Translations under genes and position numbers: made by a program
The notes under the pieces: generated by a model
Database searches by the model: none
The model's input: the letters and a program-made list of their open reading frames with translations, nothing else
Told to the model about the DNA's origin: nothing
NCBI GenBank assembly: GCA_963557965.1
Contig: CAUWEX010000005.1
Location: 1,062-65,061 of the forward strand
DNA length: 64,000 nucleotides
Direction of reading: 5' to 3'
Origin: an uncultured Clostridia bacterium
GTDB taxonomy: Bacteria > Bacillota > Clostridia > TANB77 > CAG-508
Shown: positions 41,519-51,688 of the stretch, piece after piece
Layout of the letters: every line of letters starts with the position of its first letter
How positions within the stretch are numbered: position 1 is the first letter of the stretch

Positions 41519-44500
41519 ATGAAACAGAAAAAAATCTTAGTCTCAATAGTAATACTAGTATCAATGCTATTATTATCTATAATAGCTCCAAGTGTATATG
41601 CTGCAACAGCTACAACACCATTGTATTTAGGTATTACTGAACTTAGGAAAAACGATACTCCTAATTTTGGATATGCTATAGGTGATCCAAATACAAACGG
41701 AGAAACAGGAAATGCCGCTAAACTTTGGAATATATTAGAATATACAAGTGCGGCAGAAGATGCACAAGAAAAAGCAAATGGAAGTAAAAATATTTACTGT
41801 GTTAAAGCAGGTGTAGGATTTAGTAACACACATAGACGTGCAACTTATAATGTCTTTTTTGATATGAAAACAGAAAGAGAACAAATTAAGGCACAAAACG
41901 AAACATTAAAAAGTATTGTAGAAGGAACAATATCTGTTGATGGAGGAAAAACTATAAGTAAATATGATGCTTTACTTGCATTATCAGATAGACTATATCT
42001 TATTGATGATAAAAATGACAATGCAGTGAAGGTTGAATTCTTGAAAAATGCAGGAATTACAGAGGAAGCATATGACTATCTATTAACTAGAGACGATATT
42101 GCTGCTGTTCAGCAAGCTGCGATTTGGTATTTCACTAATTACGGAGAAGAAAATAATAAATACGACAAAACAGGAAATACAGGTTGGCTAAACTACACAA
42201 CAGATGGAGTTAAATATACAAGTTTAGGCGATTATAATTTAGGAACGAACGAAGGTCGTCAAAGACAAGAACAAGCCGAAATACTATATAATTATTTAAT
42301 TAAAACTGCAAAAGACAATGCCAATAATTATTCAAATTCAACAACTTCAACAGGAGCTCCAGTAAAATTGACAACAAAAACATTAAATTATGAAGAAGCT
42401 GAAGGAAAATATATAGTAGGACCAATTCATATTGACAAAACAGAAGGAAATTCTAATCCATATACAATTGATTTTGCTGTAAAAAATGGAGATTTAGCAA
42501 TAAACGATTATAAATTATTGAATAGCAATAAAGTAGAAGTAATGCAAGGCACGACAGTTAAAGACCTTGTAGGTCAAGATTTCTATGTTTCAGTGCCAAA
42601 AGATGGCGTAACGCAAATTTCTGTTTCAATTAAAATAAATTATGACGATACAAAACTTACTTTGTGGGCGTCAACAACTAACAACAAAGAACAACCCGTT
42701 ATGATACCTGAAAAGAAACCGGAATCAGAAGAAGTAACATTAACTGTAAAGCCAAATGAAAAAGCATTTGATTTAGCTTTAAGAAAATATATAACAAAAT
42801 TAAATGGAAAAGAATTAACAGGAGCAAATGCTAGAGTTCCTAACATAGATGAGGCAACATTAAATGGTGGAACAACAGCAACATATAAACATAAAAAAGA
42901 CCCTGTAATAGTAAAAACAGGCGATACAGTTACATATAAACTTACAATATATAATGAAGGTAATGCTCAAGGACGAGCTACAAAACTTGTAGACCAATTG
43001 CCAACAGGATTAAAATTTAGCAAAGTAGTCAGTGGAAATTTTGAACTAGACACATATGTTGAAAATACAAATACATTAAACTTAAAAAGAAAAGCTGGAA
43101 ATATAGATAACCTAGCTGGATATACAACAGGAAACTTAGCATCAGAAACTATAGAAATTGAGTGTACAGTTGAAGCAAAACCAGATACAACGAATAGTAA
43201 GATACTAACTAATGTTGCATGGATAGCAGAAGAAGTAAATGCAGAAACAAATGTAACAATAACAAATCAAAAAGGTTTAGATAGAGATTCAGAACCATCA
43301 ACAAAGCCAGCTGTAGATAAAGACAATATGTCAAATTATACAGGAAATGGTAATAAAGAAGACTTAAGTGATAAAGATTATTATTATAAAGGACAACAAG
43401 ATGATGATGACTTTGAAAAATTAATTTTAATGCCAGAATCTTTTGACTTGAAATTAATAAAAAGGATTGTTGCGGTAAATGACCAAAATGTACCAGAAAG
43501 AATTGAAAAAGTAGATGTTAGTAAGTTAAACACTTTAGACGAAAAAGGAAATTTAATTACAACAGGTAATTACACATTAAACAAAGAACCTGTTGGAGTA
43601 AAAAAAGGTGATATAGTAACATATACATTTAGAATTTATAACGAAGGTACAATAGATGGATATGCTTCAGAAATAACAGAAGATGTTCCAGATGGCTTGG
43701 AATTTATGTGGTCTGAAAAAGAAGGCGAAGAACTTAAAAATGACAAAAACTTAACAGACGAAGAAAAAGAAGCTATAGAATTTAACCAAAAATATTTATG
43801 GAGTAAATTTAAATATAATGACAGTAAAGATAAAATAGTACAAATATCTTCAAGTTATTTATCAAAAGAAAACGAAACAACAATTGGAGGAAACTTAATT
43901 CCTGCATTTGGAAGTAATGATGGAACAAAAACTGAGAAAGATATTCATTACAAAGAAATCTCAGTAAAATTTAAAGTAACATCAGAAAATATAGGAACAG
44001 TAATAAGAAACGAAGCATGTATATCAGCAGATACTGATGCAAATGGAAAAGATGTAACAGATAGAGATTCAGATCCTGATAAATGGGTTAAATATGAAGA
44101 TGACGAAGACTTTGATAATATCATATTACAATCATTTGACTTAGCTTTAAGAAAATTCATTGTAGCAGTAAGTAGTGATGAGAAAATAGAAAATTCAGAA
44201 TATTTAAAAAATGCTGACGGTTCATATAAAAGAGCACCAGTTGTTGATACATCAAAATTAAATACAAATGATGAAACCGGAAAACTAATAACAACAGCTA
44301 TATATAACCATACAAAAGAGCCAGTACTAGTAAAACAAAATGACATGGTAGTGTATATGCTAAGAGTTTACAATGAGGGAGATGTAAATGGTTATGCATC
44401 AGAAATAAAAGACCACTTACCTCCATACTTAGAATTTGTAGACAATGAATATAACAAAAAATATGGATGGGAAGTATCAGAAGATGGTAGAACAGTAACA

Positions 44501-45433
44501 ACCAAATATTTAGCAGATAGTCTAGTAAAAAAAGCAGAAAAAGATAAAGATGGAAAATATGTATTATCATATGTAGAAGTTCCAATCATGTGCAGAGTAT
44601 CTGAAAAGGCAAAAACAAGTGAAAATATTACTAATATAGCAGATATAACAGAATACAAAGATGAAAACAAAAACATTGCTACAGATAGAGATTCACAGTC
44701 AAACAATGTTAAATTACCATCAGATGATAAGTTACCAACATACAAAGATGACGAAAAAGGAGAATATGTTCCAGGTCAACAAGATGATGATGACTTTGAA
44801 AAAGTGATTGTAAAAATATTCGACTTAAGCTTAAGAAAATGGGTAACACAAGCAATAGTAACAGATAAAAATGGTACAGTAATTACAGAAACAGGACATC
44901 AACCATATGATGACCCAGAAGAAATAGTAAAAGTAGACTTACATAGGAAAAATATTAAAGATGTAACAGTTAAATTTAGATATTCAATTCGTGTAACAAA
45001 TGAAGGAGAAATTGCAGGATATGCAAAAGAAGTAACAGACTATATTCCAGAAGGATTAAAATTCTTAGCAAAAGATAATCCAGGATGGACAGATGAAGGA
45101 AACAATGTGATTTCAACAACATTATTAGCAGATAAACTATTACAACCAGGAGAATATGCAGAAGTAGAAGTTGTATTAACATGGATAAATAGTGAAGACA
45201 ATATGGGACTAAAAGTAAATACAGCGGAAATATCAAAAGATTACAACGACTATGATGTACCAGATATAGATTCAACACCAGACAATAAAAAACCAGGAGA
45301 AGATGATATAGATGACGCACCAGTTATGCTATCAGTTGCAACAGGTGCAGCTAAGACATATTTTACATTAGGAGGAATTATACTAATTACATTAGCAGGA
45401 GGAATAATCTTAATTAAAAAATACATCTTATAA
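41519..45433 (+). CDS. Cell-surface adhesin with Cys-Gln thioester domain and four Ig-like repeats
   Basis: Signal peptide; IYCVKAG and VQQAAIWYFT thioester motifs; four repeats beginning FDLxL(R/K); C-terminal VATG + TM + KK. Confidence 0.8.
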   Translation: MKQKKILVSIVILVSMLLLSIIAPSVYAATATTPLYLGITELRKNDTPNFGYAIGDPNTNGETGNAAKLWNILEYTSAAEDAQEKANGSKNIYCVKAGVGFSNTHRRATYNVFFDMKTEREQIKAQNETLKSIVEGTISVDGGKTISKYDALLALSDRLYLIDDKNDNAVKVEFLKNAGITEEAYDYLLTRDDIAAVQQAAIWYFTNYGEENNKYDKTGNTGWLNYTTDGVKYTSLGDYNLGTNEGRQRQEQAEILYNYLIKTAKDNANNYSNSTTSTGAPVKLTTKTLNYEEAEGKYIVGPIHIDKTEGNSNPYTIDFAVKNGDLAINDYKLLNSNKVEVMQGTTVKDLVGQDFYVSVPKDGVTQISVSIKINYDDTKLTLWASTTNNKEQPVMIPEKKPESEEVTLTVKPNEKAFDLALRKYITKLNGKELTGANARVPNIDEATLNGGTTATYKHKKDPVIVKTGDTVTYKLTIYNEGNAQGRATKLVDQLPTGLKFSKVVSGNFELDTYVENTNTLNLKRKAGNIDNLAGYTTGNLASETIEIECTVEAKPDTTNSKILTNVAWIAEEVNAETNVTITNQKGLDRDSEPSTKPAVDKDNMSNYTGNGNKEDLSDKDYYYKGQQDDDDFEKLILMPESFDLKLIKRIVAVNDQNVPERIEKVDVSKLNTLDEKGNLITTGNYTLNKEPVGVKKGDIVTYTFRIYNEGTIDGYASEITEDVPDGLEFMWSEKEGEELKNDKNLTDEEKEAIEFNQKYLWSKFKYNDSKDKIVQISSSYLSKENETTIGGNLIPAFGSNDGTKTEKDIHYKEISVKFKVTSENIGTVIRNEACISADTDANGKDVTDRDSDPDKWVKYEDDEDFDNIILQSFDLALRKFIVAVSSDEKIENSEYLKNADGSYKRAPVVDTSKLNTNDETGKLITTAIYNHTKEPVLVKQNDMVVYMLRVYNEGDVNGYASEIKDHLPPYLEFVDNEYNKKYGWEVSEDGRTVTTKYLADSLVKKAEKDKDGKYVLSYVEVPIMCRVSEKAKTSENITNIADITEYKDENKNIATDRDSQSNNVKLPSDDKLPTYKDDEKGEYVPGQQDDDDFEKVIVKIFDLSLRKWVTQAIVTDKNGTVITETGHQPYDDPEEIVKVDLHRKNIKDVTVKFRYSIRVTNEGEIAGYAKEVTDYIPEGLKFLAKDNPGWTDEGNNVISTTLLADKLLQPGEYAEVEVVLTWINSEDNMGLKVNTAEISKDYNDYDVPDIDSTPDNKKPGEDDIDDAPVMLSVATGAAKTYFTLGGIILITLAGGIILIKKYIL

Positions 45434-49473: not shown

Positions 49474-49592
49474 TTTTGGCACTTTCGTAAAATAAATGGT
49501 AAAAAATTCCACAAAAACTTGAAATATAGCTTCTAAAGTAATATAATTTTCGATGTAAAAAATTTACATTAAATTATTTTAGGAGGATGAAT

Positions 49593-50408
49593 ATGAAAGA
49601 AAAAATTACAATTTTAATTGCGGATGACAATCAAGATTTTACACATACATTATCTAGCTATATAAATAGCCAAGATGATATGGAAGTGATTGGAATAGCT
49701 AAGGATGGAAATGAAGCGGTTAGTTTAATTCCTAATATAAACCCTGATATAGTGCTACTAGATGTAATAATGCCACAATTAGATGGATTAGGAGTACTTG
49801 AAAAAATGAGTTCTATGAGCTGTAAGAAACCAATATTTATAATGCTATCAGCTGTAGGACAAGATAAGATTACACAAAAAGCTATTAATTTAGGAGCTGA
49901 ATACTATGTCGTAAAACCTTTTGATATAGAATTATTAATAAAAAGAATAAGAGATATTAAGTTCTTTAAGCCTGAACGCAGGAATAATACTTTTATAACA
50001 AGAGACAGTAATAAAATGTACATAGATGTAGATACATCAAAGATAGGTTCGGATAAAAGCTTAGAAGCTTTGGTTACAAATCTTATTCATGAAGTTGGAG
50101 TTCCAGCACATATAAAAGGATATCAATATTTAAGAGAAGCAATAATTATGGTAGTAAAGGATATTGATGTTATAAATCAGATAACAAAAAGCTTATATCC
50201 TAAAATTGCATATAAATATGAAACAACACCAAGTCGCGTAGAACGTGCAATTCGCCATGCTATAGAAGTAGCATGGGGAAGAGGAGACCAAATTATTGTT
50301 GAGAAGATATTTGGATATACTATTTCAGCAGCAAAAGGAAAGCCAACTAATAGTGAATTTATAGCAATGATTGCTGATAAATTACGTTTAGAGTTAAAGA
50401 GTGCATAA
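49593..50408 (+). CDS. spo0A: Sporulation master regulator Spo0A
   Basis: Receiver domain plus [40 protein letters not shown]. Start 49593 fits AGGAGG spacing. Confidence 0.98.
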
Positions 50409-50557
50409 AAACATTTGGATATTGGCATTATCAAGAATACAAAGATGTTGCTATATTGCAAGAAATCTTTGATCACTCATCTTCATCAGTTACATTAAGA
50501 TACATAGGAATAAATCAAGATGTAATTGATAAATCATATATGAATTTTAGTTTGTAA
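50408..50557 (+). pseudogene. C-terminal remnant of a phage-type tyrosine recombinase/integrase
   Basis: Hand translation [49 protein letters not shown] matches integrase box II (RKTFG...HS...T.RY). It has no start and no 5' part. Confidence 0.85.
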
Positions 50558-50584
50558 AATTTTGGTTTGTAAAATTTTGGTTTG
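50543..50584. repeat. 15-bp tandem repeat (~2.8 copies)
   Basis: AATTTTAGTTTGTAA AATTTTGGTTTGTAA AATTTTGGTTTG. Confidence 0.8.
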
Positions 50585-50589
50585 CTCGC

Positions 50590-50618
50590 TTGATTTTTGC
50601 AAACAAATGTTGTATAGT
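50590..50618 (+). promoter_or_regulatory. Promoter of the putative toxin mRNA
   Basis: TTGATT-17-TATAGT. Confidence 0.6.
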
Positions 50619-50704
50619 ATTGAACATAGGAAATGAGAATAAGCAGATGTGGTTTCCACTTTACATATAACAGAGGTCAACTCTGGGAAAGTGAGGTGGT
50701 GCTT

Positions 50705-50809
50705 ATGATAGAATTTCTAATGTTTCTAATTATAGGACTAATGATTTCAACAACCATAAACGTAACCTTATTAGCAATTATATTTATACAGTGGACAAAT
50801 AAGGAATAA
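50705..50809 (+). CDS. Putative type I toxin, 34-aa single-TM peptide (missing from ORF track)
   Basis: MIEFLMFLIIGLMISTTINVTLLAIIFIQWTNKE; RBS GAGGTGGTG; structured 5' leader; convergent antisense promoter. Confidence 0.75.
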   Translation: MIEFLMFLIIGLMISTTINVTLLAIIFIQWTNKE

Positions 50810-50896
50810 ATAAAAAACACATCTGTGATTTGACCGTTATAGATGTGTTTTTACCCTATATCGTGGCAAACCACGTTTGTGGTTTCTCCATTTCAT
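50806..50896 (-). ncRNA. Putative antisense antitoxin RNA (~85-90 nt)
   Basis: Lies between the minus-strand promoter and the bidirectional hairpin 50812-50852, which has a U-run on the minus strand. Ends are estimated. Confidence 0.65.
50812..50852. terminator. Bidirectional terminator hairpin of the TA module
   Basis: AAAAAACACATCTGTGA-TTTGACCG-TTATAGATGTGTTTTT. Confidence 0.8.
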
Positions 50897-50902
50897 ATAA
50901 TT

Positions 50903-50931
50903 ATTATACACAGATTGGTATAAAAAGTCAA
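50903..50931 (-). promoter_or_regulatory. Near-consensus sigma-A promoter for the antisense RNA
   Basis: Reverse complement reads TTGACT-17-TATAAT; no minus-strand ORF follows. Confidence 0.8.
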
Positions 50932-50961
50932 GTAAATAATAATTTTAGGATACTTGAAAAT

Positions 50962-50990
50962 TTGCAAAAATTGTAAATATATGTTATAAT
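50962..50990 (+). promoter_or_regulatory. sigma-A promoter of GC-rich orphan 2
   Basis: TTGCAA-17-TATAAT with extended TG; spacer contains TGTAAAT. Confidence 0.7.
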
Positions 50991-51048: not shown

Positions 51049-51234
51049 ATGCAAGACCCTCAAAAAACTGAAAGTTACAATCCGAAAGAGCTTGAGTCTA
51101 TGTATGCGGCTATCAAACGCGCACAGGAAGAAGCAGAAAATATTATCTGTGCCGGATTTGATGGTCGCGATAACGCATATGTAGAGATGCAGATAATGGA
51201 AGATCAGGTTTTTGCCATTATCTATCCCTGCTAA
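51049..51234 (+). CDS. GC-elevated orphan small protein (61 aa)
   Basis: ATG 51049 follows AAGGAG; a hand-counted line is 43% GC; has its own promoter and terminator. Confidence 0.65.
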   Translation: MQDPQKTESYNPKELESMYAAIKRAQEEAENIICAGFDGRDNAYVEMQIMEDQVFAIIYPC

Positions 51235-51247
51235 GACTCTCCGAGCA

Positions 51248-51289
51248 CCCCTCACTTTTACACTTTAGTAAGAGTGAGGGGGATTTTTT
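51248..51289 (+). terminator. Intrinsic terminator of orphan 2
   Basis: CCCCTCACTTTTAC...GTAAGAGTGAGGGG then ATTTTTT. Confidence 0.85.
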
Positions 51290-51349: not shown

Positions 51350-51688
51350 ATGGAAGAGATAAATTTTAAAAATACAATTACTATTAAAAATTTACCATCG
51401 AATTTGATAGAAAAAGCTGTTATAGTATTTAAAGATAAAAAAACAGTTAAAGAGATTCAAAAAATAGAACAACAGTACAATAAAAAAGGGAAACAAATAT
51501 CAAAGAACACAAATTGCTACGCAATAAAAGAAGCGGAGTTAATTGTTACAAATTATTTAAAAGAAATAAATAACAAGAAAAGAAATAAAATAGTCAAAAA
51601 TAAAAGCAATAAAAAAATTAAAATTTATTCAGTTGTGGTAACTATTTTATTGCTTATCCAAACAATTATATTTATGGCTACTATATAA
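51350..51688 (+). CDS. Hypothetical protein with C-terminal TM
   Basis: RBS AAAGGAGG; KNLPSNLIEKAVIVFK N-terminus; hydrophobic C-terminus. Confidence 0.75.
   Translation: MEEINFKNTITIKNLPSNLIEKAVIVFKDKKTVKEIQKIEQQYNKKGKQISKNTNCYAIKEAELIVTNYLKEINNKKRNKIVKNKSNKKIKIYSVVVTILLLIQTIIFMATI

Follow-up and report, generated by a model that had tools for sequence, protein, structure and literature searches.

In bsrG/SR4, a type I toxin-antitoxin module of the Bacillus subtilis prophage SPbeta (RF01412), the helix that sequesters the Shine-Dalgarno (SD) sequence is reported to extend from 4 bp in the free toxin mRNA to 8 bp in the mRNA bound by the antitoxin (Jahn and Brantl, PMC3834814). In the available part of a 2019 review (PMC6562991), SR4 is reported to have a dual action, which is not reported there for RatA or SR5. 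The mRNAs of type I toxins are described as 150–400 nt long, with encoded proteins of 20–60 aa (PMC8594479), and the accessible portion of another review reports few homologs of the known type I toxins in Clostridia (PMC6563280).

Here, an element located downstream of spo0A in the genome of an uncultured Clostridia bacterium was analyzed. The predicted mRNA of ~270 nt and the ORF of 29–40 aa lie within the size ranges given above. The encoded peptide combines a predicted hydrophobic membrane helix with a charged C-terminus, the SD is sequestered in the computed structure of the toxin mRNA, and, at the sequence level, a gene is present for a cis antisense RNA within the 60–200 nt range of type I systems, with its own promoter and terminator. 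Judged from its sequence, the element is very probably a type I toxin-antitoxin module. That this conserved multicopy cassette is a type I module with a switch like that of BsrG/SR4 is the reading toward which we lean, based on RNA folding models.

Layout of the element downstream of spo0A

The element (~340 bases) is located between spo0A (49587–50408; product domains PF08769 and PF00072) and, at 51350, a conserved gene that encodes 112 aa. All coordinates refer to the window, i.e., the whole 64,000-nt stretch of DNA that was analyzed. The source genome comprises 1.34 Mb (28.5% G+C, 42 contigs), and the sequencing runs that contain the element were mostly from gut samples. Counts out of 53 refer to the parsed full-length copies of the family, as described in the next section.

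A σA-type sense promoter, TTGATT-17-TATAGT, was found at 50590–50618 on the plus strand (9/12; family mean 8.9/12, at least 9/12 in 32/53 copies), and the convergent antisense promoter TTGACT-17-TATAAT was found at 50931–50903 on the minus strand (11/12). Both had been proposed in a first-pass annotation of this DNA. Its additional statement that no ORF lies behind the antisense promoter needs correction, as a mechanically called 47-aa minus-strand ORF exists at 50820–50677, with its start inside the hairpin. Taken alone, a promoter match is weak (11 sites compared with 7.4 ± 2.8 in shuffles). Three tandem 15-bp units (50543–50584) lie immediately 5′ of the sense −35 box; the last of them corresponds to the motif ~TGYAAAATTTT-N4/5-TGTTCGC, which is found upstream of −35 in many copies and is not a full LexA box. 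The LexA box GAAC-N4-GTTC was found upstream of 0/53 copies.

The predicted toxin mRNA extends over 50625–50897 (+); we infer both of its ends, and the 3′ end was assumed because a search beyond the 3′ arm revealed no terminator conserved on the sense strand. Folding of 50625–50900, which had been named as a check of the original proposal, gave −78.8 kcal/mol (z = −5.7), with 0/200 shuffles as good. The fold included a helix that joins the 5′ end to the 3′ end, corresponding to the complementarity noted earlier, a leader hairpin, and a hairpin at 50813–50852. In a sample of 14/53 copies, z-scores of the predicted mRNA fold ranged from −3.9 to −11.6.

Along the plus strand, the 5′ arm of the long-distance helix (50630–50659) is followed by an anti-SD segment that overlaps its end (50656–50664), the leader hairpin (50671–50685), the SD region (50691–50699), the ORF of the 34-aa hydrophobic peptide (50705–50809), the hairpin (50813–50852), and the 3′ arm (50863–50894). 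The ORF, the leader hairpin, and the SD were located where the first-pass annotation had placed them, and its CACTTT/AAAGTG anti-SD stem formed when the nascent 5′ part was folded. The leader hairpin showed two-sided changes at all 5 consensus pairs and was missing from 8 short-leader copies among the 54 aligned; the SD region was conserved in alignment A1. A 58-aa in-frame extension from 50633, a frequent choice of gene callers, was ruled out because a conserved SD precedes 50705 and indels occur in the leader.

Family members, peptide classes, and genomic surroundings

DNA matches to the element were detected by BLASTN in 43/61 genomes, including 33/36 of the genus, with up to 10 matches per genome (matches, not copy numbers). 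An iterated DNA profile, built from 70 loci (30 from the BLASTN search and 40 hand-chosen from the hit list) and the copy on contig C23 of the source genome, yielded 82 hits. Of these, 56 were full-length, and 55 of the full copies had an intact ORF. The parser covered 53 of the 56, skipping two copies with ORFs and one without a start codon. The source genome contains four copies, namely the one described here, a class A copy on C23, a class B copy on C4 that is interrupted by an insertion sequence, and a remnant on C1 that corresponds to the 3′ half. The closest within-genome copies were 79% identical, i.e., diverged. The finding of paralogs, together with conservation of the ORF and of the pairing in homologous loci, raises the element far above chance.

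Among 301 genomes of the class, strong peptide matches occurred only in the taxonomic family of the window (6 genomes). Weak matches in 7 genomes outside this family (E 6e-5 to 8e-3) were taken as chance because the module is absent there. Class B was present in 20/121 genomes of the order, 18 of them within the taxonomic family. When 1.84 billion representative proteins were searched with a profile, 72 hits were obtained at E up to 0.001; the 14 hits that were inspected all contained the same peptide, several within mis-called or chimeric longer frames. Phage and plasmid collections contained no match to the module. In IMG/VR, an exact 30-mer search found 0 loci, and a degenerate motif found 20 loci, of which 1 carried the module. 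Two or three modules, in some cases differing in peptide class, were found clustered beside the tRNA-Gly/tRNA-Cys pair (L051, G025:C9:1-4100; L002; L007).

The peptide was 29–40 aa long in 53/53 parsed copies, its best 19-residue Kyte-Doolittle window was at least 2.19 in 53/53, and Lys or Arg was present within the last 6 residues in 52/53. AlphaFold predicted a single helix spanning residues 2–33 (pLDDT 96). The peptide is a putative single-pass membrane toxin. Two classes were distinguished: class A (34 copies, including this one), in which Ser15, Asn19, and Leu22 are invariant, and class B (19 copies). The two classes occupy the same RNA frame and showed no convincing match to each other (hhalign probability 8.8%). 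Over all pairs, pN/pS was 0.27/0.51 in class A and 0.25/0.51 in class B. When close pairs were pooled, the values were 0.094/0.235 in class A (99 pairs) and 0.077/0.257 in class B (10 pairs); these ratios are biased downward because "close" was defined by pN < 0.15.

The peptide family had not been recognized in the first-pass annotation, and it matched nothing in the libraries searched, where the short peptide length limits the sensitivity of family searches. In Pfam, 30 peptides of class A and 19 of class B hit no catalogued type I family at E up to 1, and the class A peptides gave no catalogued type I family or solved toxin structure in NCBIfam and PDB at the same threshold. The best family match, DUF6535 (E 0.005 in 5/30), is not credible. 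No credible match of class A was found in PHROGs (best E 0.02), and the ESM Atlas returned only unnamed clusters, under 0.9.

The codons directly after the spo0A stop (50411–50557, +) correspond to the last 48 codons of a tyrosine recombinase. This relic is 60–71% identical to the ends of three open frames of 187–194 aa in relatives; one of these frames matched PF00589 with E 6e-24, and the relic itself with E 0.031. It is a remnant of the element that likely delivered the module. The module was found just downstream of spo0A at 8/25 spo0A loci, this one included (4 full, 4 partial). Two relatives (L164, G035:C37; L167, G003:C21) carry integrase-bearing islands between duplicated spo0A 3′ ends, where the integrase adjoins spo0A and the spo0A 3′ end recurs 6 and 15 kb downstream; one of the two relatives has a partial module after this second end. 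A tRNA or tmRNA gene was present in 17/60 loci examined, seven of which share the same Gly/Cys pair, compared with 4.3% of random 2.8-kb stretches of the source genome. In a 41-kb IMG/VR contig, a module of class B adjoins a gene for a serine recombinase. The remaining neighbors were mostly unrelated housekeeping genes, and no functional tie of the module to Spo0A was found. We infer that integrative elements carry the module and that it outlasts their decay.

Two other genes in the surroundings were noted. An orphan 61-aa acidic gene (51049–51234, +; 41% G+C) has its own promoter (50962–50990, extended −10), RBS, and terminator (51248–51281). It had no DNA match in 100 genus genomes and one near-identical database protein only, and it was rejected as a component of the module. 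Upstream of the spo0A region, 41519–45433 (+) encodes a 1,304-aa secreted repeat protein that is probably anchored to the cell wall.

Among the partial hits, 18 retained the 3′ (antisense) half, two of them cut by locus ends. By eye, the ORF start, its RBS, or its promoter was absent from most of the others, although one of them, the second L035 hit, could be an intact copy that has diverged. None of the four 5′-only hits had an intact ORF, also by eye. This asymmetry of decay is suggestive only because the loci came from BLAST hits. Internal deletions that removed most or all of the ORF and kept both promoters were observed in L014, L042, L043, L045, L049, and L131; such copies would give a short sense RNA opposite an intact antisense gene.

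The C4 copy contains a 1,474-bp IS3 element (NF033516) with a 4-bp duplication in the hairpin loop. The promoter and a 40-aa ORF of this copy are intact but severed from the 3′ arm by the insertion, and its SD is predicted to be locked (11.0 kcal/mol). In run X19, the same IS end is joined to the loop of the present copy (50829–50832). These interrupted copies fit a toxin with a silent truncated mRNA, and a harmless peptide explains them equally. The IS3 (L161, G000:C4:33122–34595) may favor this hairpin loop, as two paralogs are concerned; three other IS ends in the genome lie at contig ends with unrelated flanks.

Competing helices in the mRNA and the antisense gene

A 5′–3′ helix of at least 15 pairs was predicted in 51/53 copies. 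Duplexes of cognate arms were more stable than those of non-cognate arms (−38.0 vs −29.4 kcal/mol), with 0/10,000 permutations as good, compared with 7,768/10,000 for a control segment of the ORF. These and the other permutation p-values overstate significance because the copies are kin. Non-Watson-Crick positions in the arms, read on the sense strand, comprised 160 G-U and 21 A-C, and G-U exceeded A-C in 52/53 copies. This excess on the sense strand indicates that the helix is formed by RNA, and DNA terminal repeats were therefore rejected.

Column-based counts on an alignment gave 68.8% paired positions, with 0/500 shuffles as good for both pairing and covariation score, and 333/500 for further pair types. 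RNAalifold on the MAFFT alignment recovered the leader hairpin only. In the unfitted MAFFT alignment, taken in the register of this copy, no co-variation of anti-SD and SD was detected beyond controls (52/500 shuffles), and a slid register paired better. In view of these alignment-based results, per-copy folding was relied upon.

The end of the 5′ arm doubles as the anti-SD segment. The predicted number of anti-SD:SD pairs had a median of 7.7 in the nascent RNA and 3.6 in the full-length RNA (8.0 and 4.1 in this copy) and was lower in the full-length RNA by more than 1 bp in 43/53 copies. At least 4 such pairs were computed for the nascent fold in 49/53. The anti-SD donates ~4 bp to the 3′ arm; at least 3 bp are donated in 39/53 copies and fewer than 3 bp in 14/53. 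Per copy, anti-SD and SD co-varied, with 0/10,000 permutations as good. Two mutually overlapping helices of the sense strand are thus shown, at the level of sequence, to co-vary.

The median cost of opening the SD was 8.9 kcal/mol in the nascent RNA, 8.6 kcal/mol in the RNA cut after the hairpin, and 5.5 kcal/mol in the full-length RNA, and it was 8.3 kcal/mol when the 3′ UTR was blocked as by the antisense RNA. The full-length value was lower than the blocked one in 46/53 copies and higher in 4; by this energy, the switch was weak or reversed in 7/53. The metric is not validated because it failed to tell the two bsrG states apart (10.0 vs 9.9 kcal/mol), yet the predicted SD helix of bsrG grew from 5 to 9 bp in the same control.

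The antisense promoter (50903–50931, −) scored at least 11/12 in 53/53 copies and outscored the sense promoter in 52/53, a uniformity that was favored because the profile that selected the full copies included the promoter region. At least 6 U within 8 nt after the hairpin stem were present on the minus strand in 51/53 copies and on the plus strand in 9/53. The hairpin, which had been taken for a bidirectional one, therefore reads mainly as a terminator of the antisense RNA, with the mRNA running through it. The predicted antisense RNA, the candidate antitoxin (50810–50897, −; ~87 nt; fold z = −4.2), had a median length of 87 nt in the family; it spans the 3′ UTR and not the peptide ORF, and its 5′ half would target the 3′ arm. 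It begins with a hairpin of at least 4 bp in 50/53 copies, whose stems varied but remained paired. In the main hairpin, the sense loop is an IS3 target and also the likely site of kissing; it contained a YUNR motif in 44/53 copies (25 expected from shuffled loops), and the antisense loop in 20/53. A second near-consensus minus-strand promoter, TTGATA-17-TATAAT (51028–51000, 11/12), points at the module and could yield a longer antisense RNA of ~180 nt.

Contigs with the module were found in the RNA libraries X2 and X5, and a close relative in X8; strand and ends are not readable from these contigs, which may include DNA. An X2 contig that spans exactly 50626–50894 was rejected as a source of transcript ends. 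Its ends were assigned to branch points of the assembly graph because the same contig is present in X15, whose library type is not on record and whose coverage (29/30 bins) is DNA-like. A coverage gap over 50732–50962 in X1 has no evidential value.

In the mechanism suggested by the folding models, the anti-SD would lock the ribosome-binding site by ~8 bp while the mRNA is being synthesized. Upon read-through of the hairpin, the 3′ arm would pair with the 5′ end and take half of the anti-SD, and the SD, left with ~4 pairs, would allow low translation. The 87-nt antisense RNA, which may be the more abundant one, would kiss the hairpin loop, cover the whole 3′ UTR, and release the 5′ arm, upon which the 8-bp lock would re-form; the antisense:mRNA duplex would be a substrate for RNase III. 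If the supply of antisense RNA stopped (element loss, stress), the full-length mRNA would give rise to the single-pass membrane peptide, which may arrest growth and help retain the module and the surrounding island remnants.

Alternative explanations and comparison with described systems

The type I reading of the first-pass annotation is supported by an ORF with pN < pS, a stronger convergent promoter, and co-varying helices, and further by the many copies per genome and the antisense half retained in decayed copies; its comparison with BsrG/SR4 holds on comparative evidence. It did not include the competition between helix and SD lock, the one-directional hairpin, the two peptide classes, or the upstream integrase relic. 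The same layout evidence would be expected of a RatA/SR5-type module, in which the antisense RNA only triggers mRNA decay, the SD stem acts as a constant brake, and the 5′–3′ helix protects the ends. According to the available part of PMC6562991, RatA and SR5 leave the RBS unchanged; the opening-energy control on bsrG was uninformative, and no clear switch was seen in 7/53 copies. We nevertheless consider decay alone rather unlikely, given that the anti-SD and the 5′ arm overlap in most copies, with the anti-SD giving at least 3 bp to the 3′ arm in 39/53. Moreover, an intact ORF that an IS has severed from its antisense target is tolerated, and a toxin controlled by decay only would not easily survive this.

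The presence of IS-interrupted copies in viable strains would also suit a small membrane regulator under antisense control (e.g., an accessory factor of a mobile element or a transporter) that was selected for a benign role. Toxicity is only putative, and the three invariant class A residues could mark a partner-binding face. Such a role is improbable in view of the patchy multicopy occurrence beside unrelated genes, the use of one RNA frame by two peptide classes that do not match (hhalign 8.8%), the several layers of translational repression, and the antisense half kept in decayed copies. It is very improbable that the element is a miniature transposable element, with the paired ends serving as DNA terminal inverted repeats and the ORF as a passenger. 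Inverted repeats at both ends, many copies, and scattered sites agree with this explanation, but it is largely refuted by the strand bias of arm mismatches toward G-U (160 vs 21); in addition, the promoters, both conserved, are located outside the repeats, the ORF has pN < pS, and the within-genome copies are diverged (closest 79%).

The reading that we prefer is therefore a type I module with an SR4-like switch. As a plausible but tentative extension of it, the family may represent lineage-wide fail-safe toxin cassettes. Only the complete mRNA would activate itself, with the 3′ end as an obligatory translation activator, and the minimal 87-nt antisense RNA would mainly mask this end. The portable RNA frame would have acquired two or more unrelated peptides, and IS3 in the kissing loop would disarm the cassette. 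If this were true, the family would constitute an independent second origin of the dual-action SR4 mechanism, supported by co-variation. It is difficult to detect type I systems through homology, and the family adds dozens of natural variants from a common uncultured gut lineage, in which compensatory changes map the RNA switch and thus make an SR4-type mechanism testable family-wide. Predicted cross-talk between paralogs was low (−153 vs −36 kcal/mol); together with the short antisense RNA, this could provide compact orthogonal RNA switches or counter-selection markers.

The proposed mechanism resembles that of bsrG/SR4, without membership in that family. As described in the available part of PMC3834814, bsrG/SR4 likewise has a convergent 3′-end antisense RNA with a stronger promoter and a hydrophobic peptide (BsrG, 38 aa). 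The first ~35 nt of bsrG pair with a 3′ segment (helix P1), and first contact is made through a loop complementary to the antitoxin terminator. When the present family was folded, the predicted SD helix changed from 4 to 8 bp, although the energy metric failed on bsrG itself. In contrast, SR4 is ~180 nt long compared with ~87 nt for the antisense RNA here, bsrG has its own terminator after P1 whereas here the antisense promoter directly follows the 3′ arm, and two peptide classes and several copies per genome are found here. The RF01412 model scored 210 bits on bsrG and had no match in the window or in 14 homologous loci, the DNA profile of the module had no match on bsrG, and the BsrG peptide showed no homology to either class (hhalign probability 2.4% for class A and 0.5% for class B).

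Rfam gave nothing credible on the window (best E 2.1), and no match to TxpA/RatA, Fst/Ldr, SprG/SprF, holin-like toxins, or other catalogued type I systems was found in Rfam or Pfam. The module shares with txpA/RatA and bsrE/SR5 the (here predicted) convergent 3′-overlapping antisense RNA, the SD in a stem, the small membrane toxin (here putative), and the location in prophage-like DNA; those antitoxins differ in that they are described as leaving the RBS structure unchanged and as having 100–140 bp of complementarity (available parts of PMC6562991 and PMC8167048). Similarly to CD2517.1-RCd8 and CD0956.3 of C. difficile, the module is clostridial and unannotated; those peptides are 34–53 aa long with a hydrophobic N-terminal part and a charged tail, and the C. 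difficile modules also have a convergent antisense RNA, many copies, and a link to mobile DNA. The tails here are short and less lysine-rich, and the accessible parts of PMC7699646 and PMC6563280 describe no 5′–3′ switch. A blastn/tblastn search of a collection of 50,697 phage records gave no match to the module.

A long-distance 5′–3′ helix is also present in the toxin mRNAs of aapA/IsoA (Helicobacter pylori) and hok/Sok. In the available descriptions of these systems (PMC8167048, PMC3834814), full-length mRNA is kept silent by the helix and becomes active through 3′ trimming, and the 5′ region is the binding site of the antitoxin. In the present family, the folding models predict a different arrangement, with the helix loosening the lock and the antisense RNA binding the 3′ UTR. 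No paper on this cassette family was found in the literature covered, which excludes most subscription journals; T1TAdb and the >2,000 predicted toxins in Table S8 of Fozo et al. 2010 (as cited in the available part of PMC8594479) could bear on novelty. By all of these sequence comparisons, the cassettes appear to be a new family within a kind of system that is already known.
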